A DNA stretch of 64,000 bases from Candidatus Rokuibacteriota bacterium (GCA_016188005.1 JACPIQ010000095.1:13066-77065); one strand, 5' to 3'. Positions 8,529 through 28,982 are shown, numbered from the stretch's first letter. Notes: generated by a model not told the origin, from the sequence alone. Program-made: numbers and translations.

Positions 8529-8578
8529 GAGCGGCCGATCCGCCCGCTGCCCCCCCGGGGGCACCGGCGGTCGCGCCG

Positions 8579-9916
8579 GTGGGCTCGCTGCTCGCCCGAC
8601 TGGTCGGGGTGGCGGTGCTGTGGATCGCGGTGGCCCTGCTGGCGGCCGGGTTGATCCTGGCCCACCTGTTCCGCGCTCACGTCGAGCGCACCTTCGACGC
8701 GGGGCTGCGCGATCACATGGCCGAGCTGGTGGCATTGGCCGACACCGATGCCGCCGGCCGTCTTCGCCTCAAGCGCCCATCGGTCGATCCCAACTTCGCC
8801 CGGCCGCTGTCGGGCTGGTACTGGCAGATCACGGACTCAACCGGCCGGATCGATCGTTCGCGTTCACTGTGGGACCAGGAGCTGGCGGTCCCCGCGGCGG
8901 GACCGTCGCCCCGCCTCGTCGTCCTCGCCGGGCCGCGGGGCCAAGCCCTGCGCGCCCTGGTGCGCGCCGTCGACCTGCCAGAGGCGCCAGCGCCTTTCGG
9001 CTTCGTGGTGGCCGGCCCCCAGGAGGAGATCGAGAAGGCCGTCCACGGCCTGGTGTCGGTGCTGGCCGTGGCCCTGGTGGTGCTGGGGCTGGGCCTGGTC
9101 GGCGCGGTGGTCGGCCAGGTCGGGGTGGGTCTGCGGCCCTTGCGGCGCCTGCGCCGTGCCGTCGCCTCCGTGCGCGCCGGGCGCGCCGCCCGGGTCGACG
9201 GCGCCTATCCCGCGGAGGTGGCGCCACTGGCCGACGAGATTAACGCGCTCCTGGCCCACGACGCCGAGGTGGTGATGCGGGCACGCACCCAGGCCGGCGA
9301 CCTGGCTCACGCATTGAAGACGCCGCTGGCGGTGCTCGCCAACGAGGCCGCGGGGCTGCCGCCGGAGCGTGCGGCGCTGGTGCGCGGCCAGGCCGATCTC
9401 ATGCGGCGTCACATCGACCGTCATCTCAGCCGCGCCCGCGCCGCCGCCAGCCGCAGCGTGCTGGGTGCCCGCTGTCCGGTCGGGCCCGTGGGTGCTGCCC
9501 TGGTCCGGACCCTGGCGGCGCTGCACCGCGGTCGGACCATCGCCATCACCGTCGACGGGCTGGACGGCCTCGTCTTCGGCGGCGACCGCCACGACCTCGA
9601 GGAGATGCTGGGGAACCTCCTCGACAACGCCTGCAAGTGGGGCCGGACGCAGGTCAGGGCCGCCGGCCGCCTGGTGGCGCGCCCCGACGGCGACCGCCTC
9701 GAGCTGACGGTGGAGGATGACGGCCCTGGCATCCCCGAGGAGGCGCTGGGGGAGGCGCTCGTGCGCGGGCGCCGTCTCGACGAGAGCGTTCCAGGCAGCG
9801 GGTTGGGGCTCGCCATCGTCGACGACGTGGCGGCGCTCTATGGCGGCGGCGTCGCGCTGCGGCGCTCGGAGCTCGGTGGCCTGGCCGCCGTGCTCGATCT
9901 GCCGGCCGCGGGCTAG
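8579..9916 (+). CDS. Sensor histidine kinase
   Basis: Two transmembrane segments, HAMP region, H-box LAHALKTPLAVL, N-box LGNLLDNACKW, DDGPG, GSGLGL. Confidence 0.95.
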   Translation: MGSLLARLVGVAVLWIAVALLAAGLILAHLFRAHVERTFDAGLRDHMAELVALADTDAAGRLRLKRPSVDPNFARPLSGWYWQITDSTGRIDRSRSLWDQELAVPAAGPSPRLVVLAGPRGQALRALVRAVDLPEAPAPFGFVVAGPQEEIEKAVHGLVSVLAVALVVLGLGLVGAVVGQVGVGLRPLRRLRRAVASVRAGRAARVDGAYPAEVAPLADEINALLAHDAEVVMRARTQAGDLAHALKTPLAVLANEAAGLPPERAALVRGQADLMRRHIDRHLSRARAAASRSVLGARCPVGPVGAALVRTLAALHRGRTIAITVDGLDGLVFGGDRHDLEEMLGNLLDNACKWGRTQVRAAGRLVARPDGDRLELTVEDDGPGIPEEALGEALVRGRRLDESVPGSGLGLAIVDDVAALYGGGVALRRSELGGLAAVLDLPAAG

Positions 9917-10033
9917 CCTTCTTCCTCCGGGAGCCGGCGCAGGTCGAGCACTGGGCCGGAACCGCCGGAGGCCTGGGGGCTCTGCGGGTTTGTTGGGCCC
10001 TGTGAGCCCGGGTGATACGATAGCTGCGCCGCC

Positions 10034-11737: not shown

Positions 11738-11770
11738 CGAGGTGTCCACGCGACGGGGGCCACGGGCGTC

Positions 11771-11877
11771 AGGCGCGGGCGGGCGCCAGCCCGGGTGCCC
11801 GCGGCCAGGCGCGGGCGGGCGCCAGCCCGGGTGCCCGCGGCCAGGCGCGGGCGGGCGCCAGCCCGGGTGCCCGCGCC
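11771..11877 (+). repeat. Tandem repeat, 3 x 36 nt, intergenic
   Basis: AGGCGCGGGCGGGCGCCAGCCCGGGTGCCCGCGGCC at 11771, 11807 and 11843. The third copy lacks one G. No spacers. Confidence 0.95.
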
Positions 11878-11890
11878 ATGGTGACATCTG

Positions 11891-14113
11891 ATGGCCGCCA
11901 GAATCGTGGATCCGCGTGCGGAGGACGGCACGGAGACGCTCGCCACGGCCCAGGACGCCCGCCGCCGGCGCACCGTCCGCAAGGCCGCCCGGGAGCACGG
12001 CCGCTGGGTGCGCGAGGTCAAGGGCATCCTCGCGCTGGCGCTGGCCGGGTTCGCCCTGGTGGCGCTCTACGCCTTCGATCCCGCCCGTCACCCGCTGGAT
12101 CAGTCGAGCCCCGTGGGCCCGGTGGGGCTCTGGCTCGGCTCCGCGAGCTTCCAGGTCTTCGGCTATGCCGGCTACCTCTTCCCGCTCCTGCTGGTCTGTT
12201 ACGGCGCGGGCGCCTTCGTCCACTCACGAATCGCGCGAGGGTGGCCCGGTGTGGTGGGACTCGGGCTCCTCCTGGTGAGCGTGGCCGGCATCCTGGCCCG
12301 CGCCTCGGATACGCTGTCGGAGCTCCGCATCCACAAGGGCGGCCTCCTCGGCTGGGCCATCACCGAGGTCCTGCTGCGCTCCGTGGGGACGGTGGGGACG
12401 TGGATTCTTCTCCTGGCGATCATCCCGGTCGGGGCTCTCTTCGTCACCCAGGCCTCCCTGGGACTGGCCTCGCGCGGCGCGGGCGCGCGGCTCGCCGGCC
12501 TCTGGCGGCGGCGTCCCGCCCCCGGCCCGGCGGGCGCCACCCCCTCCCCGAACCCAGGCGAGGGCGTGGGCAGGCCCGAGGACTCCGAGCCGACCGCCCC
12601 GCCGCCCTTCGTGGTCAAGGAGCCGCCCCGGCCCAGGGCTGGGCTCGTGGAGAAGGGACTTGCCTGGCAGGAGACCTTCGACTTCGGCACCGGCGGGGCC
12701 CGGTCCTTCCAGCTGCCGGCGGTCGGGCTCCTGGCGGCCCCCCCCGCCACCGGACTCCAGCGGACGCGGGAGGAGCTCGAGGCCAATGCCAACACGCTCA
12801 AGCGAAAGCTCCAGGACTTCGGCGTCGAGGGGCACATCGTCCAGGCCAGCCCCGGCCCCGTCATCACCTCCTACGAGTTCGAGCCGGCGCCGGGCATCAA
12901 GGTGAGCCAGGTCGTCAACCTCTCCGACGACCTCGCCCTGGCCATGAAGGCCGCCGCCGTGCGCATCGTCGGGCCCATCCCGGGGCGGGGCACCGTGGCG
13001 GTGGAGGTGCCGAACCCGGAGCAGGCCACGGTGTACCTGCGGGAGATCCTGGTCTCCTCGGAGTTCATCGAGTCCAGGGGTAAGCTGCCGCTGGCGCTGG
13101 GCAAGGACACCACCGGCAACCCCGTGGTGTCCGACCTCACCGCCATGCCCCACCTCCTCATCGCCGGCTCGACGGGCAGCGGCAAGAGTGTGGGGCTCAA
13201 CACGATGATCTGCTCGCTGCTCTACAAGGCCACGCCGGCGGATGTGCGCTTCCTCCTCATCGACCCCAAGCGGCTCGAGCTGGGGGTCTACGAGGGCATC
13301 CCCCACCTCCTGGCGCCCGTGGTCACCGACGCCAAGGAGGCGGCCATGCGCCTCAAGTGGATCGTGGGGAAGATGGACGAGCGCTACAAGCTGCTCCAGG
13401 GCAAGGCCGTCCGCAACATCGAGGGCTACAACCGTGAGGTCCCGGCCGAGGAGAAGCTCCCTTACTGGATCGTGGTGGTGGACGAGCTGGCCGACCTCAT
13501 GATGGCCTCGGCCGGCGAGGTGCAGAACTCCCTCGTGCGCCTGGCTCAGATCGCGCGGGCCGTTGGCATTCACCTGATCGTCGCCACCCAGCGGCCGTCG
13601 GTTGACGTGGTGACCGGGCTCATCAAGGCCAATTTCCCCACGCGCATCGCCTTCCAGGTAGCCTCAAAGGTCGACTCGCGCACGGTGCTCGACCAGAACG
13701 GCGCCGAGGGGCTGCTCGGGCGCGGCGACATGATCTTCGTGCCCCCGGGGGCGGCGCGGCCCATGCGCGTGCACGGCTCCTGGGTGGCCGATGGCGAAGT
13801 CAAGGCCATCTGCGAGTTCCTCCGCAAGCAGGGCGCCGCCGTGTACGAGAAGGTGGAGCTGCCGCCCGCGGCGGAGAGCGGCGGCGAGGGCGGTGAGGAC
13901 CGGGACGACATCTACTGGGATGCCGTGAACCTGGTGATCGCCCAGCGCCAGGCCTCCATCTCGTTCCTCCAGCGCCGCCTCGGCCTCGGCTACCCCAAGG
14001 CGGCGCGCTTCATCGACATGATGGAGCAGGACCGGATCATCGGGCCCGGCCAGGGAGCCAAGCCGCGCGAGGTCCTGGTCGGCCCCGACTACCTGACGAA
14101 GCACGGCAGATGA
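11891..14113 (+). CDS. ftsK: DNA translocase FtsK
   Basis: N-terminal transmembrane domain, HLLIAGSTGSGKS, VVDELADLMM, ATQRPSVDV, gamma domain SISFLQRRLGLGYPKAARFID. Confidence 0.97.
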   Translation: MAARIVDPRAEDGTETLATAQDARRRRTVRKAAREHGRWVREVKGILALALAGFALVALYAFDPARHPLDQSSPVGPVGLWLGSASFQVFGYAGYLFPLLLVCYGAGAFVHSRIARGWPGVVGLGLLLVSVAGILARASDTLSELRIHKGGLLGWAITEVLLRSVGTVGTWILLLAIIPVGALFVTQASLGLASRGAGARLAGLWRRRPAPGPAGATPSPNPGEGVGRPEDSEPTAPPPFVVKEPPRPRAGLVEKGLAWQETFDFGTGGARSFQLPAVGLLAAPPATGLQRTREELEANANTLKRKLQDFGVEGHIVQASPGPVITSYEFEPAPGIKVSQVVNLSDDLALAMKAAAVRIVGPIPGRGTVAVEVPNPEQATVYLREILVSSEFIESRGKLPLALGKDTTGNPVVSDLTAMPHLLIAGSTGSGKSVGLNTMICSLLYKATPADVRFLLIDPKRLELGVYEGIPHLLAPVVTDAKEAAMRLKWIVGKMDERYKLLQGKAVRNIEGYNREVPAEEKLPYWIVVVDELADLMMASAGEVQNSLVRLAQIARAVGIHLIVATQRPSVDVVTGLIKANFPTRIAFQVASKVDSRTVLDQNGAEGLLGRGDMIFVPPGAARPMRVHGSWVADGEVKAICEFLRKQGAAVYEKVELPPAAESGGEGGEDRDDIYWDAVNLVIAQRQASISFLQRRLGLGYPKAARFIDMMEQDRIIGPGQGAKPREVLVGPDYLTKHGR

Positions 14114-14303
14114 CTGGCGAGCCGCAGCCGGAGGCGAGGCGAGCGGAGGTGGAGGTCAGGCGAGCGTGAGCGAGCCAGGCGAGCCGCAGCCCGCAGTGCG
14201 AGGCGCAGCCGAAGGCGAGCCGAGTAGAAGGATCGAGAGAGCGCGAAGCGCGCCGAGGCGAGCGGAGATGGAGATGGCCCGAGCGGAGCGAGGGAGCGGA
14301 CTC
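14112..14303 (+). repeat. Purine-rich, internally repetitive intergenic element (GCGAGC/GNA-triloop type)
   Basis: GGCGAGCCGCAGCC at 14116 and 14178. GAGGCGAGCGGAG(G/A)TGGAG at 14136 and 14255. Very few T on the + strand. Confidence 0.6.
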
Positions 14304-14969
14304 ATGACCACAGCGCTCCTGATCACGGCGCTGGTGGCGCTTGTGGGCCTGGGGCCCCCGCCGGCGGACGCCCAGACGATGGAGGAGGTGGTGTCGGGGC
14401 TCGAGGCCACCTATGCCCGGGTGCAGGACCTCCGCGCCGACTTCTCCCAGGTGTCTCACAACCGGAGCCTGGGCCAGGACATCAGGGCGGATGGCACCGT
14501 GTACCTCAAGAAGGGCGGGAAGATGCGCTGGGAGTACCGGAGCCCGTCGGCCCAGCAAATCGTCTCGGACGGCAAGTCCCTCTGGGTCTACACCCCCGAG
14601 CTGAACCAGGTGAACACGGGCGCCGCGCCCGAGGCCCTGGCCGGTCCGGCAGGAAGCTTCCTGGCTGGCCTCGGACGCGTGCGGGAGCAGTTCCACGTGC
14701 GCTTTCTCAACCCGGCCGCCAAGGTGGATACGGCCGGCCGCCCTGTGCTCGACCTCGCCCCGAAGGTACCCACGCCGCTGCTCACCCGGCTCGTGCTCTC
14801 GCTGGACCCGAAAGATTTCGTGGTGCGCCAGGCCGTGCTCTACGACCAGCTCCAGAACACGGTCACCATGACGTTCACCCGCGTGACGATCAACGCCGGG
14901 CTCAGCGATGCGCTCTTCGCCTTCACGCCACCCAAGGGCACGGCGGTGGTGCCGCTCGCGCCCCGGTAG
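14304..14969 (+). CDS. lolA: Outer-membrane lipoprotein carrier protein LolA
   Basis: Signal peptide, LRADFSQ, GTVYLKKGGKMRWEY, QQIVSDGKSLWVYTPELNQV. Follows ftsK. Confidence 0.92.
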   Translation: MTTALLITALVALVGLGPPPADAQTMEEVVSGLEATYARVQDLRADFSQVSHNRSLGQDIRADGTVYLKKGGKMRWEYRSPSAQQIVSDGKSLWVYTPELNQVNTGAAPEALAGPAGSFLAGLGRVREQFHVRFLNPAAKVDTAGRPVLDLAPKVPTPLLTRLVLSLDPKDFVVRQAVLYDQLQNTVTMTFTRVTINAGLSDALFAFTPPKGTAVVPLAPR

Positions 14970-14999
14970 CGCCAGCCAGGAACAAGGGAGGAGACGGCC

Positions 15000-15497
15000 G
15001 TGGCCGCCGAGAACAGCTTCGACATCGCGTGCAAGGTGGACATGCAGGAGGTCGCCAACGCCATCAACCAGGCGAGGAAGGAGATCGAGACCCGCTACGA
15101 CCTGAAGGGGACACGGAACGAGATCGCGCAGGAGAAGATGGAGATCGTCCTGACCTCCGCCGACGAGATGAAACTCCGGGCCGTCCTGGACATCCTGCAG
15201 TCCCGGCTTCACCGGCGCGGCATCGATCTCAAGGCGCTCACCATCGGCGAGCCCGAGCCCGCGGCCGGGGGAACCCTCCGCCAGACGGTTACGCTCCAGG
15301 ACGGCATCCCCGTCGAGAAAGCCAAGGAGATCGTGCGCCTGATCAAGGACTCGAAGATCCGGGTCCAGGCCTCGATCCAGGAGAAGCAGGTGCGCGTCGC
15401 GGGAAAGAACCGAGACGATCTCCAGGCCGTCATCGCGCTGGTCAAGGCCAAGGATCTCGGCGTCGCGCTCCAGTTCACCAACTACCGCTCCACCTGA
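15000..15497 (+). CDS. yajQ: YajQ-family nucleotide/c-di-GMP-binding protein
   Basis: SFDIACKVDMQEV..RYDLKG, KVQASIQ-like RVQASIQ, RVAGKNRDDLQAVI, LQFTNYR. Confidence 0.95.
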   Translation: MAAENSFDIACKVDMQEVANAINQARKEIETRYDLKGTRNEIAQEKMEIVLTSADEMKLRAVLDILQSRLHRRGIDLKALTIGEPEPAAGGTLRQTVTLQDGIPVEKAKEIVRLIKDSKIRVQASIQEKQVRVAGKNRDDLQAVIALVKAKDLGVALQFTNYRST

Positions 15498-15905
15498 TTG
15501 CCTCCGCCACGTGGAGGTGCTGGCCCCCCCAGGTCCGGCGGCAGAGGGCCCGGATACCGGTGGCCGAGGGGCCTCTCCGGTGGTTCCCTGTCGGCGAGCT
15601 TGACAGCAATCCGCCCTGGCCCAGGCTCGGAACGGCACACGACAGGGGAGCTGGGTGGCGCCCAGTTGCTGGTGGCCAGTTCGAGAAGCCCTCTCCGGAC
15701 GCTGGGTTAGCCTGTAGGCCCAGCGGGGGACGGAATGCTCCCGGCGGGCATCCCTCCCCTTCCGGAACCCCGGTCCAGTGACGGCGGTGCCGGGACCGGC
15801 GCCGGCGGGGCGGCCGTGGGCCTTCCGTTTACGAAAGCCCGGACTTCATTGGCGAATACTTGTGATGAGGTCAGAGCTTTGGGTTCCCTCTCGCACCGAG
15901 CGCCA

Positions 15906-15998
15906 TGTCGACGGCGTTGACACCTCACCACATTTCCGTGGACAGCCCATGCCTAAGTCAACGAGATCAGTGAAATTCCTGCGTGGCCCTCCACTTGC
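15906..15998 (+). promoter_or_regulatory. sigma54 promoter with upstream 17-bp box (PEP-CTERM gene 1)
   Basis: TGGCCCTCCACTTGC at 15984-15998. TGTCGACGGCGTTGACA at 15906-15922. Distal TGTCGGCGAGCTTGACA at 15589-15605. Confidence 0.75.
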
Positions 15999-16052
15999 GC
16001 ATCCCGTCAGATGCCAGTGGAAGCCACAAACGGGCTGGCAGGGGGAGAGAAC

Positions 16053-16961
16053 ATGGTGAGCAAGCTGGTCGGAGCCGTGATGGCGCTGCTGGTCGCTGTC
16101 CTGCTCGGGGGGGAGCCGGCCGAGGCGAGTCACCTCGTGCTGGGGAGCGCTGAGGACCTCGCGCTGAGAACCCTTGCGCTGGAGGGGTCAGACGCTACGG
16201 GACTGCATAGGGACACCACCTACACCGGTCAGCTGGGGGCATTCCTGAGGGCTGGCCGTCACGAGCCCATTCTCGTCCTGGGGACCGTGGACCTCGGCTT
16301 CGGCGGACTGGGATTCCCCGGGGACACCGTCTACGTCAGCGAGGCGGGCCTCGCCGCCATCATTGCCGCGGGCGATTTGCACAGGTCCGACTTCAGCGCC
16401 CTCTACATCCAGAGCCCGGGGGCGTGCTGCACGGAGAGACATGCGGGCGCCGCGCCGTTCCAGGCGGACATCGGCGCCTTCTACGGTGAGGGCGGCAGCC
16501 TGGCCATCCAGGACTACGGCGGCCGCGACTGGGGGGCGGCACTGCCATTCCCTACGCCGCCTCCTGGTGCCGTGAGGGGGTTCGACACGGCGGGCGGCAC
16601 CGTCGGTACGTTCTGCTGGGACAGCGAGGTTTTCACGGCCGATGCGCTGGCCAAGGGGTTCACCCAGCCCCCGGTGCTGGGCTGCTGGGCCCATCAGGCG
16701 TATGACACGGCCTACTTCGGGGACGCGTCGGCTCTCGGCCTGTCGGCGGCCTTTCTCAGCCTCGTCGACTCCGGCCCGGCACACCCCCCGGGGTTCTCGA
16801 GCTTCCTCGCTCTCGGCGGCGGCCTCGGGACAGTCGGTGGCTGCCCCACCTGCCCGCCGGGCGACGGAACTCCCGGCGTTCCGGAGCCGGCCACCCTGCT
16901 CCTCCTGGGCGCCGGGCTCCTCGTGCTGGCTTGCTGGCGGAATCTGCGCAGAGTGTTCTAG
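16053..16961 (+). CDS. PEP-CTERM sorting-domain protein 1
   Basis: Signal peptide, C-terminal VPEPATLLLLGAGLLVLACWRNLRR (PEP motif, TM helix, basic tail). Confidence 0.92.
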   Translation: MVSKLVGAVMALLVAVLLGGEPAEASHLVLGSAEDLALRTLALEGSDATGLHRDTTYTGQLGAFLRAGRHEPILVLGTVDLGFGGLGFPGDTVYVSEAGLAAIIAAGDLHRSDFSALYIQSPGACCTERHAGAAPFQADIGAFYGEGGSLAIQDYGGRDWGAALPFPTPPPGAVRGFDTAGGTVGTFCWDSEVFTADALAKGFTQPPVLGCWAHQAYDTAYFGDASALGLSAAFLSLVDSGPAHPPGFSSFLALGGGLGTVGGCPTCPPGDGTPGVPEPATLLLLGAGLLVLACWRNLRRVF

Positions 16962-17069
16962 AGGCCCGATCAGCCGGCTACACGGCATCCTCTCACGGGC
17001 GCCAGGGATGATCCTGGCGCCCGTGGTCTTTCTGTTCTTTGCCGGTACAGGTTTGGTAGGCTGTGCCAC

Positions 17070-19052
17070 GTGCTGGTCATCGCCGCGCTCCTGCTTCTCG
17101 CCGCCGCCAGCCCGGCCGCCGCCGCGGATGGGCAGTCTGCCGGCGAACCGGTCCCGGATGCTTCGACGACCCCCCCCGCGCTCGCCGCCGTCATCGAGTT
17201 GCTGAAGCGGGGGGATGCCGTCGGGGCCCTCGCCGGAGCCCGGGAGTTCGTCAAGAGCCAGCCTGGCTCGGCGGTCGGGCACGAGGTGCACGGGATCGCT
17301 GCCACGGCGAGCCGGCTGCCGCGCGAGGCCTCGGGGGCCTTCTACGAGGCGCTGCGCCTGGAGCCGGGGCGGCTCGGCGTCATGGTGCGGCTCGGGCAGC
17401 TCGCGCTGGATTGGCGCGACCCGCAGCGGGCCGAGAGCTGGTTTCGCAAGGCGCTCGCGGCGAACGCCGATCTCCACACGGCGCGACGCGGCCTCGCGGT
17501 GACCCTGCTCACGCGGCGCCAGCTCGACGCGGCGCTCGCCGAGTTGCGCGAGGTACTGAGGCGCTCGGGCGGACGGGACGTGGAGGCCAAGCGCCTCATC
17601 GGGCAGGTTTACCACGACGCGGGCCGCCCCGCCGAGGCCGAGCCCATCCTCGACGAGGTGCTGGCGGCGAGGCCTGACTCCATGGCCACGATTCTGCTCC
17701 AGGGCCTGGTCAAGCTCGAGCTGGGAAAGGACGCCGAGGCCGAGCGGCTGTTCGAGAAGGTCGTCGAGCGCGATCCCAGGTCCCCCGGGGCGCGCCTGGG
17801 GCTGGCAATGATCCAGCGGTCGCGCGGAGATCTCGCCATGGCCGCGACAGAGATGGAGAGCATCGCCAGGGACAACCCCGCGTGGTCGCTGGCTCACTTC
17901 GAGCTCGGACGCACTCTCGCGGCTCAGCGCGAGCTGGGCGCGGCGCTCCGTGCCTTCGACCGCGCCGAGCAGACCAGCCCCGCCCCTGCCGTGACACGGG
18001 TCCGAGGCGCCCAGGCTCTCTTCGTCGCGGGAGAGGCAGACCGGGCTCTCCTCCGGGCGCGGGCCTCACTCGCCTCCCCGGGCGCGGCGCCCCTCGCCCG
18101 CGCGCTCATCACTCAGATCCACCTGGCGAAGGGGATGCCCGAGACCGCCGAGCGTGAGCTCGTGAAGGCCGCGGCCGTCGCCCCTCAGGACGTGACGGCG
18201 CTCCTGCAGCTGGCCCGCTTCTATCTCGGCCAGCGCCGGCCCGCCGACGCGGCGCGCCGGTTCGAGGAGGCCGCGCAGGCGCGGCCCAACGCCTCCGGGC
18301 CGCTCGCTGGCCTCGTTGACGCCTATATGGCGCTGGGCCAGACCGACCTGGTGCTGGCCACCGGGGAGCGGCTCCTGCGTGCCCAGGGGGAGACCGCTGG
18401 CGCCTACGTGGCCTTTGCCGCGATCAACGAGAAGGCTGGGCGGCCGGCGGAGGCCCTGGCCGCCTATGCGCGCGCCCTCGACAAGGAGCCCCACCACCTG
18501 GCCGCAGCCCGGGCCCGCGCCAGCCTGCTCGAGCGTCAGCAGCGGGTGGCCGAGGCCATTCAGCTCCTCGAGGAAACAGCCCGCGCACACCCGAAGCAGA
18601 CGCTGCTTCTCGTCGAGCTCGGGCGGATCCAGGAACGTGCGGGGAACCCCGCGGCTGCCGCGGCCGCCTACCGCCGCGCTCTCGAGAGCGCGCCCGCCAG
18701 CGCGGAGGTGATGAACAACCTGGCCTACCTCCTCAGTGCCGATCCGGTCAGCCGCGACGAGGCCCTGACGCTGGCCGAGCGGGCGCACGCGCTGGCACCC
18801 CGGAGCCCCGCAATCGCCGACACCCTCGGCTGGCTCCTGTACCAGAAGGGCGACCTGGGGCGGGCCGAGCCCCTCCTCGCGCAGGCTGTCCAGGCCGCGC
18901 CCGGCCTGCCAGCGATCCGCTACCACCTCGGTCTCGTCTATGCCCGCCAGGGCAAGACCGCCGAGGCCAGGCGGCAGCTCAGGGAGGCCCTCGAGGCCCC
19001 TGGCTTCACCGAGGCGGACGCGGCCAGGAAGGCGCTTGAGGCGCTGAAATAG
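17070..19052 (+). CDS. PrsT-like multi-TPR exported protein
   Basis: Signal peptide, many TPR units, C-terminal NNLAYLL..ADTLGWLLYQKG..IRYHLGLVY typical of PEP-CTERM-system TPR proteins. Confidence 0.85.
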   Translation: MLVIAALLLLAAASPAAAADGQSAGEPVPDASTTPPALAAVIELLKRGDAVGALAGAREFVKSQPGSAVGHEVHGIAATASRLPREASGAFYEALRLEPGRLGVMVRLGQLALDWRDPQRAESWFRKALAANADLHTARRGLAVTLLTRRQLDAALAELREVLRRSGGRDVEAKRLIGQVYHDAGRPAEAEPILDEVLAARPDSMATILLQGLVKLELGKDAEAERLFEKVVERDPRSPGARLGLAMIQRSRGDLAMAATEMESIARDNPAWSLAHFELGRTLAAQRELGAALRAFDRAEQTSPAPAVTRVRGAQALFVAGEADRALLRARASLASPGAAPLARALITQIHLAKGMPETAERELVKAAAVAPQDVTALLQLARFYLGQRRPADAARRFEEAAQARPNASGPLAGLVDAYMALGQTDLVLATGERLLRAQGETAGAYVAFAAINEKAGRPAEALAAYARALDKEPHHLAAARARASLLERQQRVAEAIQLLEETARAHPKQTLLLVELGRIQERAGNPAAAAAAYRRALESAPASAEVMNNLAYLLSADPVSRDEALTLAERAHALAPRSPAIADTLGWLLYQKGDLGRAEPLLAQAVQAAPGLPAIRYHLGLVYARQGKTAEARRQLREALEAPGFTEADAARKALEALK

Positions 19053-19192
19053 CGGGTCCCGGCCGAGTCTCCCGCCCGGCAGCCCAGCGTGCGCCCCGCG
19101 GCAAGGCGTAAGAAGGGTCGACACCCTCTGTTCTGACGACCTCTGGCCGGCATGGAGCAACCCGTGGAAAACATTGAGGCCCGGCACGAGCA

Positions 19193-19287
19193 AGTCGGGA
19201 AAGCTTACAGCCCCGCCCCGCGGCGGTGCCACGAAGGAGTGAAGATCTTGTATTTGAATGCGTTTCTTTAAGTGGCACGCCGGCTGC
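19193..19287 (+). promoter_or_regulatory. sigma54 promoter with upstream 17-bp box (PEP-CTERM gene 2)
   Basis: TGGCACGCCGGCTGC at 19273-19287. AGTCGGGAAAGCTTACA at 19193-19209. Inverted copy CGTAAGAAGGGTCGACA at 19107-19123. Confidence 0.8.
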
Positions 19288-19388
19288 AGTGCTTGCGCAC
19301 CAGCTGAATTGGAACGCTCCAACTAACTAGTGCGCCGGATGGTTTGGGCGGGCAGGCCGGACCCAGTCGAACTCGAAAGGAGCAGAGA

Positions 19389-20261
19389 ATGCGACGTGCC
19401 ACTCTCGGGGCAGTTCTGGCGACAACAGTTCTGACCGGGCTCTTCTGGTTCAGCCCGGCGTCAGCCGGAAACATCTGGTTGACAGGCCATGACGCGGATT
19501 TCCACTGCGCGTTCGGTGCTCAGTGCAATCACTTCGGCATCGCGCTAGACTTCGCGCGGCAGGATGCGCCGGACAAGACCAAGCCGCTCCTCTTCCTGGA
19601 CTCGGGGGGCGAGGTCGCCAGCGCAGCGGGATCGGCTGGCGCCAGGGCGAGGAACACCGTCGAAGGCGCAGGCTCTCCGTTCCCATTCGTCGTGGTTGAC
19701 CCCTCGACGCCCGCCTTCGCGGCCTTGGCGCTGACGACCGCGTCGTTCAGCGCCATCGTGATCGCGTCGGACTCAACCTGCGGCGGTTGCGACAACAACG
19801 CCGCGGACATCGCGGCGATCAACGCCAGGACGGCTGACATCACCGACTTCTTCAATGCCGGAGGCGGCTTGGTGTACTTCGCCGGGGCCGCCAACAGGGA
19901 CACCTACTACGACTCGGTGCCGATCCCCGCAGCGGCGGTTGCCGTGTCTCCGCCCTTCAGCCTGACGGCCGACGGGGTTGCGCTCGGCCTGCTGGATCCT
20001 GCGGACACCGACTGCTGCGCCACCCACAACAGCTTCTCGCTTCCTGGGGCCGGCAGTGCGCTCAAGGTGGCCGAGCTCGACTCGCTGGGCTTTGCTGAGA
20101 CCCTGTTCGCCGGCGACGTGACGATCGGCGGCGGCGGCTTCGAGCCCGGCTGCGGCACTGCAACGACTCCGCCCTGCTCAGTGCCTTCTCCCGCTGCGCT
20201 GCTGCTGCTTGGCCCGGCGATCGGCGCCTTTGGATACTGGGAATGGAGGCGCCGCAAGTAA
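19389..20261 (+). CDS. PEP-CTERM-like protein 2 (VPSP variant)
   Basis: Signal peptide, C-terminal VPSPAALLLLGPAIGAFGYWEWRRRK. AAGGAG upstream. Confidence 0.85.
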   Translation: MRRATLGAVLATTVLTGLFWFSPASAGNIWLTGHDADFHCAFGAQCNHFGIALDFARQDAPDKTKPLLFLDSGGEVASAAGSAGARARNTVEGAGSPFPFVVVDPSTPAFAALALTTASFSAIVIASDSTCGGCDNNAADIAAINARTADITDFFNAGGGLVYFAGAANRDTYYDSVPIPAAAVAVSPPFSLTADGVALGLLDPADTDCCATHNSFSLPGAGSALKVAELDSLGFAETLFAGDVTIGGGGFEPGCGTATTPPCSVPSPAALLLLGPAIGAFGYWEWRRRK

Positions 20262-20306
20262 GACGCCTTAGTCGTCAGGGCTGACGATCCGGATGCCGGA
20301 GCGCCT

Positions 20307-20336
20307 GAGCGCCGCGGGGTAACCCCCGCGGCGCTC
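20307..20336. terminator. 13-bp perfect GC hairpin after PEP-CTERM gene 2
   Basis: GAGCGCCGCGGGG-TAAC-CCCCGCGGCGCTC. No U-tract, so a terminator role is uncertain. Confidence 0.45.
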
Positions 20337-20741
20337 GCCCTGTCTGCCTGCTCGGCTCTGGCCTACGTCAACCTCCTGCCGGCCTCCTCCGGACCTCCTT
20401 CCAGGCGCCCAGACGCCGCCTTCCTCTGCAACCGTCGAGTGAGGCTCGGTCCTTGTCGGGCTTGCCCTGAGCGCCCCATAATCGCCCGCGACATCTCTCC
20501 CAGCGCCGTCACCCGGCCGAACCCGAGCAACGAAGCGCACTTGGCCGGAAGTTGGATCTCCGAAGCCTGAGGCGGAGCTGTCGGACCGGTTTACATCAGG
20601 CCGGGGCCTCAACTCAGATGCCGCGCCCGGGAATGAGTCAAACGGGTCAGGGAAGGTAGAGCCGGGGGCCCAGGACGCCGCCCGAGCGGTAGAGATGCCT
20701 GGCGATGAGCCCGTCGGGGATTACCCGAATCGGGCCGGACG

Positions 20742-20834
20742 CGGCACCCAGGTTTACAGCTGCAAAGGGCGTCATGCCTTCCCCCAGGCCAAACGGTTGA
20801 TGCGTCAGGCAATTATCTTCGGCACGATTTCTGC
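20742..20834 (+). promoter_or_regulatory. sigma54 promoter with upstream box and IHF-like site (PEP-CTERM gene 3)
   Basis: CGGCACGATTTCTGC at 20820-20834. CGGCACCCAGGTTTACA at 20742-20758. Distal TGTCGGACCGGTTTACA at 20579-20595. IHF-like CATCAACCGTTTG on the minus strand at 20790-20802. Confidence 0.78.
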
Positions 20835-20896
20835 TAGTGAAGCTTTGCACGAGAGTTCATTGCGAGTGCCCTATTAGTGGGCCAGAGGAGACAACC

Positions 20897-21988
20897 ATGA
20901 TTCGGAAGGCCGGAGCGTTGTGGCTATGCGTGGGGCTGGCTATGGTTCTCGTGGGCGGGTGGGCACCGCTCGCGGGCGCGGGAGGAGTGGTCACCAACGG
21001 CACCGTGACTCTTGGGATCAACGACCATGGGGCGTTGAACTTCGCTGGTACCGGGCTGATCTTCAACGCGACCGGCAACGACAGCACGTTCCCGGGTTGC
21101 ACCTGCGAAGGCTGGGGCGCGGGGATCGTGAGTTCCGGCATCTCGGGATATCAGAACACCGCCTTCGGGGGACCGGTCAACCTGTCTCTGGTGAGCTTCG
21201 TCTCGACCGCCAGCACGGCCACGTCGGTCGTGAACATTAACGACCCGTCAGGTGGCCCGGCGCTGCAGGTCAGCCAGGCCTACCATCCGATCGCCGGTAC
21301 GCCGAACCTGTACCAGGTCGATGTCGCGATCACGAACCTGACCGGCGCCCCTCTCGCCGCCGGAGACCTCGTCTACCGGCGGGTGATGGACTGGGACATC
21401 GAGCCGACGCCGTTCAGTGAATTCGTCACCATCCAGGGCGTGCCAGCGCTGCTGGGCGTCGCCAATGGCAACAACGTCCGGCGCACGGGCAATGACGGTT
21501 TCGACACCGCGAATCCGCTCGCCACGGTGTCCGGCGGTATGATTGGCGGCGGACCGGGGTGCGCGTCCGGCGTTCTCGCCCTGAACAGCAACTTCACCGA
21601 CTGCGGTCCTGCTGACCATGGCTCGGTCTGGGATTTCGAGTTCGAGGCGCTCGCAGCCGGGGCGACCCGTAGCTTCGCCATCTTCTACGGCGCGGCGGCG
21701 ACCGAGGCAGGGGCCGACCTCGCCCGTTCGATGGTCGACGGCGATCCCACGGACGTCGAGATCGGCCTGTTCTCGTACGGTCAGTGCAACAGCGGGTCCA
21801 ATGCCTCCTGCAGCGAGATCACGGGCACGCCCAACACCTTCATCTTCGGCTTCGGTGCAGCGGGCGGCATCCTGCTTCCGCCTCCGCCTCCGCCCACCCC
21901 GGGCGTGCCCGAACCCGCCTCGCTGCTTCTGCTCGGCGCGGGGCTGGTCGCCGCGGCGGCCCTGAAGCGGGCGTATCGCAGGAAGTAG
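20897..21988 (+). CDS. PEP-CTERM sorting-domain protein 3
   Basis: Signal peptide, beta-rich body (YRRVMDWDIEPT), poly-Pro linker, VPEPASLLLLGAGLVAAAALKRAYRRK. GAGGAG upstream. Confidence 0.92.
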   Translation: MIRKAGALWLCVGLAMVLVGGWAPLAGAGGVVTNGTVTLGINDHGALNFAGTGLIFNATGNDSTFPGCTCEGWGAGIVSSGISGYQNTAFGGPVNLSLVSFVSTASTATSVVNINDPSGGPALQVSQAYHPIAGTPNLYQVDVAITNLTGAPLAAGDLVYRRVMDWDIEPTPFSEFVTIQGVPALLGVANGNNVRRTGNDGFDTANPLATVSGGMIGGGPGCASGVLALNSNFTDCGPADHGSVWDFEFEALAAGATRSFAIFYGAAATEAGADLARSMVDGDPTDVEIGLFSYGQCNSGSNASCSEITGTPNTFIFGFGAAGGILLPPPPPPTPGVPEPASLLLLGAGLVAAAALKRAYRRK

Positions 21989-22060
21989 ACGCGCCAGACA
22001 CCTAGTTGCAACGCGGGGCCCTCTTCCCGTAACGTGGCAGGAAACGGGAAGGGGGCCCCG

Positions 22061-24112
22061 ATGGTTTCTGCGCTGATCCCGATCCGGTCCGCCGTTCTGC
22101 TGGTCGCTGTGTCGATGTGGCTGGTCGCCACCGTGCCCCACTCGCTCGCCGCGCCCATGGATATCGGCGCGTCGACCGACCCCAACCTCCGCATCGATCC
22201 GCGAGCGCCCGACAGGCCCGGCGCTGCGCCGTCCCCGAAGCTCGCCGCGGCGCTCCAGGCTTACAAGGGCGGCGATTTCGACAAGGCCCTGTCCCTGGCG
22301 CGAGAGCATGTCAAGGAGCAGCCGCGCTCGGCCGTGGGCCACGAGCTGCGCGGCGCTGCGGCCATGGCCAAGGGACAGCTCAAGGAGGCCGAGGAGGCGC
22401 TCAACGAGGCGCTCCGGATCGAGCCGAAGCGGGCCGCGACCCTGGCCATGCTCGGGGAGCTGTACTACCGGCGCAACGATCCGAGGAGAGCCGAGGACCA
22501 GCTTCGACAGGCGCTGACGATCGACTCGCGGTTGCCAGGCGGTCACCGCTTCCTCGCCCTTGTGCTGTTTCGGCAAGGCAAGGTCGGGCCGGCTGTGGAG
22601 GCCGCGCGAGAGGCGGTGCGGGTCTCGGGCGACGCCGACCCGGAGGCCCATTACGTCCTCGCGTCGATGTACTTCGAGCTGGGCCGGCCGGCCGAGGCCG
22701 AGCCGTTGCTGGCCCGCGCGCTGGCCGGACGCCCCGACTCGGCCCAGACGAACACGCTTCAGGGCTTGGTCAAGCTCCAGCTCCGGAAGATCGACGAGGC
22801 GGCGACATTCCTGCAGAAGGCGGCGGCCAAGGACCCGAGCTCGCCGTGGGTACGCCTGGGCATGGCCCTCGTCCAGCGCTCGCGGGGCAACATGGCGCAG
22901 GCCCGCAGCGACCTCGAGAAGCTGGCCAAGGACCAGCCGGCCTGGCCGCTCGTCAATCTCCAGCTCGGCGAGACGCTGCTGGCCGACAAGCAGGTGGAGG
23001 CGGCCCTGCGTGCCTTCGACGCCGCCGAGAAAGCCAGCCCGAACCGTTCACTGACCCAGTTTCAGGCGGCGCGCGTGCTGCTGGCCTACGGCGAGGCCGA
23101 CCGCGCCATCGCGCGGGCCCGGGGCGCCCTCGAGTCCAAGGAGGTGGCACCCGCGGCGCGCGTCGTGATCGCGCAAGCCTATCTGGCCAAGAAGAGCCCC
23201 GACCTGGCCGAGAAGGAGCTCCAGGTGGCGCTGGCGGCGGCGCCGAAGGACCCCGCGCCCGCGATGCAGCTCGGGAGCTTCTATGTCGGGCAGAAGAAGT
23301 ACGCCGAGGGGCTCCGCCAGTTCGAGAAGGCGGCGAGCCTGCGCCCTGAGGCCTTCGAGCCCCTGGCCGCCCAAGCCGAGACGCGGCTCCTCCTCAAGCA
23401 GGGGGACGAGGCAGTGAAGGTGGCCGAGCGGATGGTCGAGACGCAGAAGGAGGCGCCCGATGCCTACGTCTTCCTCGGTGGCATCCAGGAGCGCGCCGGG
23501 CGCTTCCAGGACGCCGCCAGGAGCTACCAGAAGGCCATGGAGAAGCAGCCGAACCACCTGGGCGCGGCGCTCTCGCTGGCGGCGCTGCACGAGCACGAGA
23601 AGCGCCCCCAGGCGGCCGCCAAGCTGCTCCGCGAGGCCGCCGACGGCCACCCGCAGGCGGCGCTGCCGCTCGTCCGCTTGGGGATCCTCAAGGACCGCGA
23701 GGGCGACAGGCCCGCAGCCGTTGCGGCGTACCGGGCGGCGCTCCAGCGAGACGGTCGCAACGCGGTGGCGCTGAACAACCTCGCCGACGCCCTCGCGAAG
23801 GACCCGAAGACGCGCGACGAGGCGCTGGGGCTCGCCGAGCGCGCCTATCAGGCCGCGCCCCGGAGCCCGGTGATCGCCGATACGCTCGGCTGGCTCCTCT
23901 TCCAGAAGGGGACCCTCGATCGGGCCGAGCAGCTCATCGCCCAGGCGGCTACCGCCCTGCCGGGAAACTCCGAGATCCGCTACCACATGGGTCTGGTCTA
24001 CGCCAAGCGCGGGAAGAAGGTCGAGGCCCGCCGGGAACTGGAGGAGGCACTCAAGTCCCCGTCCTTCCCCGAGGCGGCGGCGGCGCGGAAGGCGCTCGAT
24101 CAGCTCAGGTAG
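22061..24112 (+). CDS. PrsT-like multi-TPR exported protein (paralogue of 17070-19052)
   Basis: Signal peptide, TPR units, near-identical C-terminal block RDEAL.LAERA...APRSP.IADTLGWLL.QKG..AARKAL..L. Confidence 0.85.
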   Translation: MVSALIPIRSAVLLVAVSMWLVATVPHSLAAPMDIGASTDPNLRIDPRAPDRPGAAPSPKLAAALQAYKGGDFDKALSLAREHVKEQPRSAVGHELRGAAAMAKGQLKEAEEALNEALRIEPKRAATLAMLGELYYRRNDPRRAEDQLRQALTIDSRLPGGHRFLALVLFRQGKVGPAVEAAREAVRVSGDADPEAHYVLASMYFELGRPAEAEPLLARALAGRPDSAQTNTLQGLVKLQLRKIDEAATFLQKAAAKDPSSPWVRLGMALVQRSRGNMAQARSDLEKLAKDQPAWPLVNLQLGETLLADKQVEAALRAFDAAEKASPNRSLTQFQAARVLLAYGEADRAIARARGALESKEVAPAARVVIAQAYLAKKSPDLAEKELQVALAAAPKDPAPAMQLGSFYVGQKKYAEGLRQFEKAASLRPEAFEPLAAQAETRLLLKQGDEAVKVAERMVETQKEAPDAYVFLGGIQERAGRFQDAARSYQKAMEKQPNHLGAALSLAALHEHEKRPQAAAKLLREAADGHPQAALPLVRLGILKDREGDRPAAVAAYRAALQRDGRNAVALNNLADALAKDPKTRDEALGLAERAYQAAPRSPVIADTLGWLLFQKGTLDRAEQLIAQAATALPGNSEIRYHMGLVYAKRGKKVEARRELEEALKSPSFPEAAAARKALDQLR

Positions 24113-24127: not shown

Positions 24128-25438
24128 ATGAAGGTCCATCTCACGACGCTCGGCTGCCCGAAGAACCAGGTGGACTCCGAGCTGATGCTCGGCATGCTGG
24201 CGGGCGCCGGCCACGAGATCACGGAGCGCGCCGAGGCGGCCGAGTGCCTCGTGGTCAACACCTGCGCGTTCATCGACCAGGCGCGCGAGGAGTCAGTCAA
24301 CACGATCCTCGAGCTGGCAGAGCTCAGGGAGCGCGGCCGGGCCCGGGCCCTCATCATCACCGGCTGCCTCACCCAGCGCTATGGCGGGGAGATCCTCACG
24401 GAGATCCCCCAGGTCAGCGCCATCCTCGGCACCTCCGAGCTCCACCGCATCGTCGAGCTGGTGAGCCAGGCCGGCTCGCGCCAGGACTGGGTATCGAGCG
24501 CCCCGCCCGGGTACCTCTACGACGCCACGACGCCCCGCCTCCTCACCAGGGGGGTGCCCTACGCCTACGTGAAGATCGCGGAAGGGTGCGACATGGGTTG
24601 CACCTTCTGCGCCATCCCCCAGTTCCGCGGCCGGCACCGGAGCCGCCCCATCGGCGACATCGTCGCCGAGATCGAGCAGCTGGCCGCGCGCGGCCTCCAG
24701 GAGGCCATCCTGGTCTCCCAGGACACGCTGGCCTATGGCCGTGACCTCCCGGGCGGGGGCGACATCGGTGACCTGCTGCTGGCCCTGTCCGACACGCCCA
24801 TGCCCTGGATCCGCCCCATGTACCTGCACCCGGCCCATGTCACCGACCGGCTCATCGCCCGGTGGGCCCGCGCGCGGGTCGTTCCCTATCTCGACATGCC
24901 GGTGCAGCACGCCGACGACGGGGTCCTCCGCGCCATGCGACGCGGGGTGACCGCCGCGCGCATGATGGACGTCCTGACCCGGTTCCGCGAGGCGATGCCT
25001 GGCGTGACCATCCGGACCACGGTGCTGGTGGGCTTCCCGGGGGAGACCGAGGCGGCCTTCGACCGCCTCCTGGCCTTCGTGGAGGACGCGGCCTTCGACA
25101 GGCTCGGCGTCTTCACCTACTCGGCGGAGGAGGGCACGCAGGCGGCCGGCCTGGGCGCGCAGGTCCCCGCCGAGGTGATGGCCGAGCGCGCGGCGCTCGT
25201 GCAGGAGGTGCAGGACCGGCTGGCCTGGGAGCGGCAGAAGGCGGTCTACGGCACGCGCCAGACGGTGCTCGTGGACGGACCCAGCGCGGACCCCGCCTTC
25301 CCCTTCGAGGGCCGCACGGCGGGGCAGGCGCCGGAGATCGACGGCGTGGTCTATCTGCGCGACGGGGCGCTCACGCCCGGCCGCTTCGCCGAGGTGCGGG
25401 TCGTGGAGGTGGAGGGTTACGAGCTCGTGGGTGAGTAG
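24128..25438 (+). CDS. rimO: Ribosomal protein S12 methylthiotransferase
   Basis: LGCPKNQVDSE, VNTCAFI, radical SAM motif GCDMGCTFCAIP, C-terminal TRAM domain APEIDG. Confidence 0.96.
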   Translation: MKVHLTTLGCPKNQVDSELMLGMLAGAGHEITERAEAAECLVVNTCAFIDQAREESVNTILELAELRERGRARALIITGCLTQRYGGEILTEIPQVSAILGTSELHRIVELVSQAGSRQDWVSSAPPGYLYDATTPRLLTRGVPYAYVKIAEGCDMGCTFCAIPQFRGRHRSRPIGDIVAEIEQLAARGLQEAILVSQDTLAYGRDLPGGGDIGDLLLALSDTPMPWIRPMYLHPAHVTDRLIARWARARVVPYLDMPVQHADDGVLRAMRRGVTAARMMDVLTRFREAMPGVTIRTTVLVGFPGETEAAFDRLLAFVEDAAFDRLGVFTYSAEEGTQAAGLGAQVPAEVMAERAALVQEVQDRLAWERQKAVYGTRQTVLVDGPSADPAFPFEGRTAGQAPEIDGVVYLRDGALTPGRFAEVRVVEVEGYELVGE

Positions 25439-27764: not shown

Positions 27765-27812
27765 CAGGCGCCCGGCGAGCCCCAAGACTGGCGGTTGAGC
27801 GCCCGCGCTCGA

Positions 27813-27842
27813 TTGACTTTGGGAGGATCGGCCCCCTACAAT
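27813..27842 (+). promoter_or_regulatory. sigma70-type promoter of recA
   Basis: TTGACT-N18-TACAAT. Confidence 0.65.
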
Positions 27843-27926
27843 GTCGCAACCGCGCGTGGAATCGTTTTCTTGCCCCTGCCCCCGCCTCCCGACGGGGAGA
27901 GGTCCGGACGGGTTGAGGAGATCCCA

Positions 27927-28982
27927 ATGGCCGAAGTGAAAAGCGACCGCCGTCAGGCCCTCGAGCTGGCGCTGGCATCCATCGACAGGCAGTTCGGCAA
28001 GGGCGCCATCATGCGCCTCGGCCAGGGTGGGGCGTTCGACGAGATCGCCGTGATCCCGACGGGCGCGCTCTCGCTCGACGTGGCGCTCGGCATTGGCGGC
28101 ATCCCCCGCGGCCGCGTCACCGAGATCTACGGTCCGGAGTCCTCCGGCAAGACGACGCTGGCGCTGCACGTCATCGCGGAAGCGCAGCGCGCCGGCGGCA
28201 CCGCGGCCTTCATCGACGCCGAGCATGCGCTCGACCCGATCTACGCCAAGAACCTCGGCGTCAACACCGACGAGTTGCTCATCTCGCAGCCGGACACGGG
28301 CGAGCAGGCGCTCGAGATCGCCGAGACCCTCGTGCGCTCCAACGCCGTGGACGTCATCGTGATCGACTCCGTCGCCGCCCTCGTGCCGCGCGCCGAGCTC
28401 GACGGTGACATGGGCGACTCGCTGCCGGGGCTGCAGGCGCGCCTCATGTCCCAGGCCCTCCGCAAGCTCACCGCCGCCATCTCGCGCTCCGGCGGCAGCG
28501 TGATCTTCATCAACCAGATCCGCGAGAAGATCGGCGTCATGTTCGGATCGCCCGAGACCACGACGGGCGGGCGCGCGTTGAAGTTCTACTCCTCCATCCG
28601 TCTCGACATCCGCCGGCAGGATACGATCAAGAACGGCACCGAGTCGATCGGCGTGCGTACCAAGGTCAAGGTGGTCAAGAACAAGCTGGCGCCGCCGTTC
28701 CGCGAGGCCGAGTTCGACGTCATCTACGGCGAGGGCATCTCGAAGGAGGGCAGCGTGCTGGACGCGGCCGTCGAGCAGAATGTCGTGGAGAAGTCGGGGA
28801 CCTGGTACACGTACAAGAGCGAGCGGATCGGGCAGGGCCGCGAGAACGCCAAGCGCCACCTCAGGGAGAACCCGAAGACGCTCCTGGACCTGGAGGTCAA
28901 GGTGCGTGCCGCGCTGGGGCTCAGGCCCGCCGGCGGCCCGCCGGCGGCCGCCGCCGACAAGCCCGACAAGCCCGCCCGGTAG
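27927..28982 (+). CDS. recA: Recombinase RecA
   Basis: IEIYG-like [44 protein letters not shown]. No intein. Confidence 0.99.

Follow-up and report, generated by a model that had tools for sequence, protein, structure and literature searches.

Resident short PrsT-like TPR genes and sigma-54-type PEP-CTERM units between yajQ and rimO in a rokubacterial genome

The 64-kb stretch of Candidatus Rokuibacteriota DNA analyzed here (GCA_016188005.1, JACPIQ010000095.1:13066-77065; ~70% G+C; "the window") carries, between yajQ and rimO, three genes for proteins with PEP-CTERM-like tails (PEP1, PEP2 and PEP3) and two for PrsT-like tetratricopeptide repeat (TPR) proteins (TPR1 and TPR2). The locus raises the question of whether each TPR protein is devoted to the PEP-CTERM protein encoded just upstream of it. 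A preliminary description of the sequence had proposed exactly this: that each TPR protein is a dedicated chaperone or scaffold, co-expressed with its cargo, and that the pair duplicates as a module. Our analysis favors another reading, to which we give a probability of roughly 0.6: resident short PrsT-like TPR genes are interleaved with independent, sigma-54-controlled PEP-CTERM units, and the two do not make up dedicated cargo-chaperone pairs.

PEP-CTERM units and TPR genes of the block

The genes in question, and the two that border them, are as follows.

15000-15497, + strand: yajQ (c-di-GMP-binding YajQ family; NF003819, 210 bits), upstream anchor of an ftsK-lolA-yajQ-TPR-rimO row
16053-16961, + strand: PEP1, 302 amino acids (aa), signal peptide, domain of unknown function and PEP-CTERM tail VPEPATLLLLGAGLLVLACWRNLRRVF (PF07589, 28.2 bits; TIGR02595, 20.4 bits; the public gene call agrees)
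17070-19052, + strand: TPR1, 660 aa, predicted secreted PrsT-like TPR solenoid (TIGR02917, 279.0 bits)
19389-20261, + strand: PEP2, 290 aa, signal peptide, conserved alpha/beta domain and divergent VPSP tail (homolog alignment, structure model and public gene call)
20897-21988, + strand: PEP3, 363 aa, signal peptide, domain of unknown function and PEP-CTERM tail (PF07589, 24.9 bits; TIGR02595, 20.7 bits; public gene call)
22061-24112, + strand: TPR2, 683 aa, second predicted secreted PrsT-like TPR solenoid (TIGR02917, 281.6 bits)
24128-25438, + strand: rimO (TIGR01125, 465.7 bits), downstream anchor of the row

Open reading frame (ORF) calls made with reading-frame G+C, together with family matches, confirmed the order PEP1-TPR1-PEP2-PEP3-TPR2 between yajQ and rimO given in the preliminary description. 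All five ORFs of the block lie on the + strand and show coding-type G+C at third codon positions (GC3 0.80-0.91). The public gene call, taken from the NCBI record that carries the PEP2 gene (GCA_016192485.1, contig JACPUB010000478.1), starts TPR2 at ATG 22061; its longest ORF begins at GTG 22034, inside a 17-bp hairpin. In the entire 64 kb, PEP-CTERM-like tails occur on three coding-like ORFs, and since all three fall within this 8-kb block, their clustering is not due to chance.

PEP1 and PEP3 pass the curated cut-offs of both PEP-CTERM models (PEP1: 20.4 bits against 16 for TIGR02595 and 28.2 against 20.7 for PF07589; PEP3: 20.7 against 16 and 24.9 against 20.7). The VPSP tail of PEP2 matches no PEP-CTERM model and reaches 16.3 bits with IPTL-CTERM, under the cut-off of 20.8. 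PEP2 belongs to a family of >400 homologs of ~290 aa that has no Pfam domain and is marked by invariant TGHDxDxHC, CGGCD and CCxTHNSF motifs. Because some of these homologs end in a PF07589 (PEP-CTERM) tail and others in a PF18203 (IPTL-CTERM) tail, the PEP2 tail is predicted to be a divergent exosortase-type sorting signal; a few homologs also carry SLH or other additions. A model of PEP2 (predicted local distance difference test score, pLDDT, 84) has an alpha/beta fold with no significant match in the PDB, the best being a GATase-like domain at E = 0.015. Outside their C-terminal tails, PEP1, PEP2 and PEP3 are mutually unrelated.

Each of the three genes is preceded by candidate regulatory elements and followed by a hairpin.

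15590-15605, + strand: distal enhancer motif 1 (GTCG-N7-TKACA) of PEP1, exact match
15907-15922, + strand: proximal enhancer motif 1 of PEP1, exact match, 61 nucleotides (nt) 5' of the sigma-54 site
15984-15999, + strand: sigma-54-type -24/-12 element of PEP1 TGGCCCTCCACTTGCG, 53 nt 5' of ATG 16053
16993-17036, + strand: intrinsic-terminator-like hairpin between PEP1 and TPR1, 14-15 bp stem, 4-6 nt loop and T-rich tail (z = -3.9; 0/200 shuffles as good)
19194-19209, + strand: enhancer motif 1 of PEP2, exact match, 63 nt 5' of the sigma-54 site
19273-19288, + strand: sigma-54-type -24/-12 element of PEP2 TGGCACGCCGGCTGCA, one mismatch to consensus, 100 nt 5' of the start
20307-20336, + strand: 13-bp GC hairpin after PEP2, no T tract (z = -3.4)
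20580-20595, + strand: distal enhancer motif 1 of PEP3, exact match
20743-20758, + strand: proximal, imperfect motif 1 of PEP3 GGCACCCAGGTTTACA, 61 nt 5' of the sigma-54 site
20820-20835, + strand: sigma-54-type -24/-12 element of PEP3 CGGCACGATTTCTGCT, 61 nt 5' of ATG 20897
22014-22060, + strand: 17-bp hairpin between PEP3 and TPR2, covering GTG 22034 and ending one base 5' of the TPR2 start (z = -3.5; 0/200 shuffles as good)

GTCG-N7-TKACA is matched perfectly at exactly four places in the window, each of them on the + strand and 5' of a PEP-CTERM gene, where 0.43 would be expected by chance. For comparison we used related loci fetched from genome and metagenome collections by TPR homology alone (given here by L-numbers), the closest of which are metagenome-assembled genomes labeled Candidatus Rokubacteria, Rokuibacteriota or Methylomirabilota; PEP-CTERM tails in them were found by pattern and most were confirmed against a curated model. 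In these loci 16 of 23 motif 1 matches lie 5' of recognized PEP-CTERM genes, and three more precede over-called or cut-off ones. A GG-N10-GC sigma-54 site stands 5' of all three PEP-CTERM genes of the window and, when the related loci are included, of 15 of the 18 with intact 5' ends (0.048 expected per upstream region).

A PEP-CTERM box was described by Haft et al. 2006 (PMC1569441): its motif 1, sometimes present in more than one copy, has TTTACA at its end, a spacer of 62.8 +/- 10.6 nt separates this from a sigma-54 motif, and the start codon comes ~71 nt beyond. Measured against the wording of that paper, the window agrees with this layout: the spacers are 61, 63 and 61 nt and the starts lie 53, 100 and 61 nt after the sigma-54 sites. 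Spacers in the related loci are mostly 52-63 nt, with one of 87 nt. Terminator hairpins similar to those of the window follow PEP-CTERM genes in L002, L088, L091, L092 and L005. The window scan found no sigma-54 site 5' of TPR1 or TPR2, a scan for sigma-70 promoters gave nothing useful for the TPR genes, and the TPR2 stop lies 15 nt before the rimO start. On these signals each PEP-CTERM gene would be a self-contained, single-gene unit of the sigma-54 type, made up of box or boxes, promoter, ORF and hairpin. The signals point to PEP-CTERM and TPR genes as separate transcription units, which argues against the co-expression that had been proposed.

The hairpins that follow PEP-CTERM genes share a GGGCGCC...GGCGCCC core across genomes, although the PEP-CTERM proteins are unrelated (window 16993-17026; L002 9890-9995; L088 427-540; L092 10175-10290; L005 12233-12350, with GGGCGUC on one arm).

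TPR1 and TPR2 are 47% identical and collinear end to end (E = 3e-171), and so are the clear paralogs of about 660 and 680 aa that the preliminary description had taken them to be. PrsT (TIGR02917) is the best family for both, any other reaching <=141 bits, but their scores of 279.0 and 281.6 bits are under the PrsT cut-off of 312.2, which true rokubacterial PrsT proteins exceed (L007, 391; L021, 329; L084, 462 bits). They match the C-terminal ~580-630 aa of the 926-aa PrsT P0010, and the N-terminal third is missing. Their Sec-type signals end in AAA/AD and SLA/AP, and neither N-terminal region contains a cysteine that could form a lipobox such as those of the comparators P0010 (LSGC), P0049 (LVGC) and the L007 PrsT (AGGC).

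Among 5.8 billion proteins, close relatives of the two TPR proteins number six (42-54% identity, 595-678 aa), after which identity falls to ~25%, against PrsT proteins of ~920 aa; because of this drop the short TPR proteins appear to be a small, distinct family of ~660 aa. An exact-sequence look-up of TPR1 returned no match. The AlphaFold model of TPR2, built on a two-sequence alignment (pLDDT 87), has a disordered N-terminus, consisting of signal peptide and linker, and then a solenoid in which residues 59-683 form ~36 helices, or 18 repeats. A fold search with this model retrieved generic TPR solenoids only (Ctr9, TTC21B, OGT) and was uninformative on specific function. In a neighbor-joining tree the TPR1 clade, the TPR2 clade and several others are separate, which indicates that the duplication is old, predating this genome and not having taken place inside it. 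A repeat search for a duplicated PEP-CTERM-plus-TPR unit found similarity only within the two TPR genes (64-70% DNA identity), so the notion of a modular, duplicating unit finds no trace at the DNA level.

Synteny and adjacency in related loci

In the window the row of + strand genes runs from ftsK (11891-14113) and lolA (14166-14969) to yajQ, and beyond rimO to pgpA, cinA, a 2'-5' RNA ligase-type gene (public gene call), recA and a PilT-like ATPase gene. The yajQ row is also seen in L002, L003, L035, L089 and L090. A TPR gene stands between yajQ and rimO with no PEP-CTERM gene in L035/L086 (Rokubacteria GWA2_70_23, with a TPR protein 76% identical to TPR1), L003 and L089/L090. At these PEP-free sites the yajQ stop and the TPR start are separated by 6-10 nt, where the window and L002 hold a PEP-CTERM unit of 1.3-1.6 kb. 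TPR1 orthologs occupy the yajQ-rimO interval in L035 (76% identity) and L002 (63%), and L002 and L088 have a PEP-CTERM gene in the very slot of PEP1 whose product is unrelated to PEP1. TPR2 orthologs (86-87% identity) lie directly 5' of rimO in L004 and L081-L083, all on contigs that break within the TPR gene, so that the upstream side is not covered. Comparison of empty and filled yajQ-TPR sites found no flanking repeats and no target-site duplication. The TPR is the resident gene of the slot and the PEP-CTERM units are its variable, inserted part; the suggestion that cassettes of both genes were inserted between yajQ and rimO must be narrowed to the PEP-CTERM unit.

Adjacency was measured in 40 loci, the window and 39 related ones, with "near" defined as within 2.5 kb of a family TPR gene. 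Nineteen PEP-CTERM ORFs lie near (in 120 kb) and two farther off (in 185 kb), both of the latter in a single multi-TPR island, L084; this amounts to a ~15-fold enrichment beside the short family. In 117 loci of distant, canonical-type PrsT relatives there is no such enrichment, with 0.27 PEP-CTERM ORFs per 10 kb near and 0.24 far. These figures point strongly to a functional link between PEP-CTERM genes and this family in particular, and not PrsT in general.

The link between TPR and PEP-CTERM genes that the preliminary description had drawn thus stands; the dedicated, co-expressed, duplicating pairs do not stand, and order and orientation vary between loci. The PEP-CTERM gene precedes the TPR gene in L002, L088 and L091, the order seen in the window. 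The reverse order, found in L005, L092, L095, L098, L106, L107 and L110, or a convergent arrangement (L001, L085, L108) is commoner elsewhere, and L092 and L096 have divergent genes.

Nor does the identity of the neighbors suggest cognate partners. TPR1 orthologs are preceded by no PEP-CTERM gene or by an unrelated one (L002, L088); L098 and L107 encode TPR proteins that are 93% identical, followed by PEP-CTERM proteins that are only 36% identical; and PEP2 homologs in three other lineages (L162, L163 and L164) have no family TPR gene adjoining. A 687-aa protein encoded beside the PEP2 homolog of L163 was considered as a family TPR and rejected as unrelated.

The L084 island (1-17630) combines, in order, a PEP-CTERM gene, a true PrsT gene (1069 aa, 462 bits), a short-family TPR gene, a MacB-like permease gene, two PEP-CTERM genes and a second short-family TPR gene, which belongs to another clade; two of its three PEP-CTERM proteins have IPNP tails. 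In L007 and L021, from other Rokubacteria, an exosortase gene is followed directly by a true PrsT gene, and in L007 a PrsR-like sigma-54 activator and an EPS (exopolysaccharide) exporter are encoded near the exosortase. From the L084 cluster and these two exosortase-PrsT loci, the phylum has the full PEP-CTERM/exosortase system, of which the short family would be an additional component.

Several further features were seen in passing. At window 51531-56144 lie genes for an extracytoplasmic function (ECF) sigma factor, a zf-HC2 anti-sigma factor, a DUF4139 protein and a TPR protein with a weak YfiO/BamD-like match, none of which is related to the PrsT-like family. The ORF for DNA polymerase I (window 71-2584) is matched by its model in two stretches and has weak matches to intein-containing proteins at about residues 180-583, which may reflect an insertion or low-complexity sequence. 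In L004, 2.1 kb of toxin-antitoxin-like genes (750-3000; Phd/YefM-like and MqsA-like, judged by eye from translations) are inserted in the 5' end of rimO, whose start is duplicated; within the insert, a 60-nt remnant matches window 21925-21984, in the PEP3 tail region, at 97% identity. The RecA of L004 is a 729-aa ORF (6596-8785) with its homology in two blocks ~1 kb apart, which suggests an intein-like insertion; there is none in the window RecA (27795-28982). In L109 (1-1614) a TPR1-type C-terminus is followed by a yajQ C-terminus fragment, in reversed order, from rearrangement or a chimeric contig.

Possible roles of the short TPR proteins

In the reading we prefer, TPR1 and TPR2 are old paralogs of a short PrsT-like family with a Sec signal peptide, no lipobox and ~18 TPR repeats, which in Rokubacteriales is resident in the housekeeping row ftsK-lolA-yajQ-TPR-rimO-pgpA-cinA. 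The three PEP-CTERM genes would each form an independent, single-gene expression unit, and such units would have accumulated next to the TPR genes. Because each unit has PrsR-type boxes and a sigma-54 promoter, its gene would be switched on by a PrsR-type sigma-54 activator encoded elsewhere, and the TPR genes would probably be expressed along with their neighbors, more weakly but more steadily. Most likely the TPR solenoids serve the PEP-CTERM/exosortase system as general periplasmic components: a scaffold or adaptor role toward PEP-CTERM proteins is conceivable, as is partnership with the Prs machinery. They would not be one-to-one chaperones for the product of the adjoining gene. Such a general periplasmic role would match the need for prsT in floc formation by Aquincola. 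Gene content, paralogy, synteny, regulatory motifs, hairpins and the enrichment of PEP-CTERM genes near the family are observed; transcription pattern, cell location and function are what we infer.

Several points weigh against this reading. Clade E of the family keeps its TPR gene together with the same downstream PEP-CTERM family down to ~44% TPR identity, an arrangement that looks more like a stable pair. Just 33 nt separate the T-rich tail of the PEP1 terminator from the TPR1 start, and no promoter was found there, so transcription of TPR1 may depend on PEP1 read-through, in which case the two genes would in a sense be co-expressed. Among the ~55 ORFs scanned across the 64-kb window there is no exosortase, PrsK, PrsR or EPS/polysaccharide gene, which extends to the whole window the earlier statement that the block holds no exosortase or EPS gene; that this organism has a complete system is an assumption drawn from other Rokubacteria. 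Some of the loci are near-duplicates from related metagenomes, so the P value of the enrichment is overstated.

One alternative, unlikely in our judgment, gives the short TPR proteins a regulatory part: as periplasmic partners of a sensor kinase of the PrsK type, they would tune the PrsR/sigma-54 activation of the neighboring PEP-CTERM genes without handling the proteins at all. The phylogenetic profile by which PrsT was defined is one that it has in common with PrsK, PrsR and the PEP-CTERM box, and not with exosortase (PMC1569441); all three PEP-CTERM genes of the window carry the box, and the TPR genes adjoin these regulated targets. However, neither in the window nor in the yajQ-rimO loci does a kinase or activator gene adjoin these TPR genes, and this view gives no clear reason for at least two paralogs per genome. 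The two-component genes beside the TPR gene of L005 were tried as PrsK/PrsR and rejected, the kinases being generic (83 bits with PrsK against a cut-off of 300).

We think it rather improbable that the short PrsT-like proteins serve exosortase as substrate-class adaptors to which PEP-CTERM proteins are physically delivered, their clades (TPR1 type, TPR2 type, D and E) being specialized on neighboring cargo. If this were true, adjacency would reflect a real but loose cognate relation, and would offer a first handle on the function of PrsT-type proteins.

Strict pairing, with each TPR protein a chaperone or scaffold for the PEP-CTERM protein just upstream, is more doubtful still. PEP1 does pair by position with TPR1, and PEP3 with TPR2; the same order recurs in L002, L088 and L091; past the PEP1 terminator no promoter is obvious for TPR1; clade E retains one PEP-CTERM family over a deep divergence; and adjacency is strong overall. 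Clade E and the 33-nt spacing of TPR1 from the PEP1 terminator, with no visible promoter, keep a weaker form of the pairing idea alive. Yet there are three PEP-CTERM genes to two TPR genes, and PEP1, PEP2 and PEP3 share no DNA similarity, so no duplication of a unit is visible. Each PEP-CTERM gene moreover comes with an enhancer, a sigma-54 promoter and a hairpin of its own, and neighbors differ or are missing between genomes: TPR1 orthologs occur without a PEP-CTERM gene (L035, L089/L090) or with one unrelated to PEP1 (L002, L088), nearly identical TPR genes (93%) precede divergent PEP-CTERM genes (36%), and the PEP2 homologs of L162, L163 and L164 adjoin no family TPR gene.

Lastly, the housekeeping synteny, with 6-15 nt gaps to yajQ and rimO, the several relatives lacking a PEP-CTERM gene at the site and the generic TPR solenoids returned as structural matches would also suit ordinary envelope-biogenesis factors of the lolA-yajQ-rimO row, beside which PEP-CTERM genes came to lie by chance or at an insertion-tolerant site, but we disfavor this as highly improbable given that PrsT is the best family by a wide margin (~280 bits against <=141 for others), that family members outside yajQ-rimO are also flanked by PEP-CTERM genes in varied orientation (L005, L084, L092, L095, L098, L107, L108, L110), that PEP-CTERM genes are enriched ~15-fold near the family, and that short-family genes are co-located with a true PrsT in L084.

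Comparison with known PrsT and PEP-CTERM systems

What the window adds, as we see it, is threefold. It reveals a distinct, shorter PrsT-like family with no lipid anchor that lies consistently beside exosortase substrates, unlike canonical prsT; this speaks for a role directly connected with those substrates, and the loci are compact gene sets for binding or complementation work. It extends the PrsR/sigma-54 PEP-CTERM box beyond Proteobacteria to Rokubacteriales. It places the family as a resident of the yajQ-rimO row, at a site where PEP-CTERM units may be present or absent, and presents PEP-CTERM genes as self-contained units of enhancer, promoter, ORF and terminator that would be gained and lost at a fixed chromosomal position, which should be useful for annotating surface proteins and regulons of uncultured soil and groundwater bacteria. 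A full-text literature search found, among the papers listed, none joining PEP-CTERM with Rokubacteria, Methylomirabilota or Methylomirabilis, and the PrsT literature searched yielded no account of the molecular role of PrsT.

The closest known arrangement shows that the locus is not as unprecedented as the preliminary description had supposed. In Aquincola tertiaricarbonis RN12, pepA has a mapped -24/-12 promoter and depends on RpoN1; downstream of it come a stem-loop terminator and prsT, which is transcribed at a lower level than pepA, independently of RpoN1, and is needed for flocs (PMC9850573). At the sequence level this layout is found twice in the window, in PEP1-TPR1 and PEP3-TPR2. Unlike their Aquincola counterparts, however, TPR1 and TPR2 are ~240 aa shorter than the PrsT model, have no lipobox and fall below the TIGR02917 cut-off, and none of the PEP-CTERM proteins is PepA (NF033554, cut-off 80 bits: PEP1, 16.4 bits over the tail only; PEP2 and PEP3, no match). 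The window also differs in having two paralogous TPR genes and three unrelated PEP-CTERM genes within the housekeeping row, and its host is an uncultured Rokubacterium of another phylum, known from sequence alone.

In the PrsK/PrsR/PrsT regulon, PEP-CTERM genes that bear the box are mostly single-gene operons, the profile of the box matches those of PrsK, PrsR and PrsT, and prsT is often in tandem with prsK and prsR (4 of 13 genomes) (PMC1569441). The PEP-CTERM genes of the window are likewise single-gene units behind long non-coding regions, with box and sigma-54 site and a start codon ~50-100 nt past that site, and a TPR protein is part of the system. Haft et al. 2006 reported the box in Proteobacteria only (PMC1569441), whereas here it is found in Rokubacteriales (Methylomirabilota); and in the window the PrsT-like genes adjoin the regulated PEP-CTERM genes, with no prsK or prsR nearby.

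PrsT, named in 2006, was described by Haft et al. 2006 as having a lipoprotein signal with a lipobox cysteine (PMC1569441). TPR1 and TPR2 are 26-30% identical to the canonical rokubacterial PrsT proteins of L007, L021 and L084 over the C-terminal ~600 residues, with the same repeat type and in the same phylum, and the canonical PrsT of L084 shares its cluster with two short-family members. The canonical proteins, unlike TPR1 and TPR2, score 329-462 bits and pass the cut-off, are 728-1069 aa long and, in L007, have the lipobox cysteine; in L007 and L021 their genes come directly after exosortase, and distant PrsT-type genes show no enrichment for PEP-CTERM neighbors. The layout of sigma-54-dependent PEP-CTERM gene, terminator and prsT, as in Aquincola, and the PEP-CTERM box regulon are already known, and the window is a variant of them.

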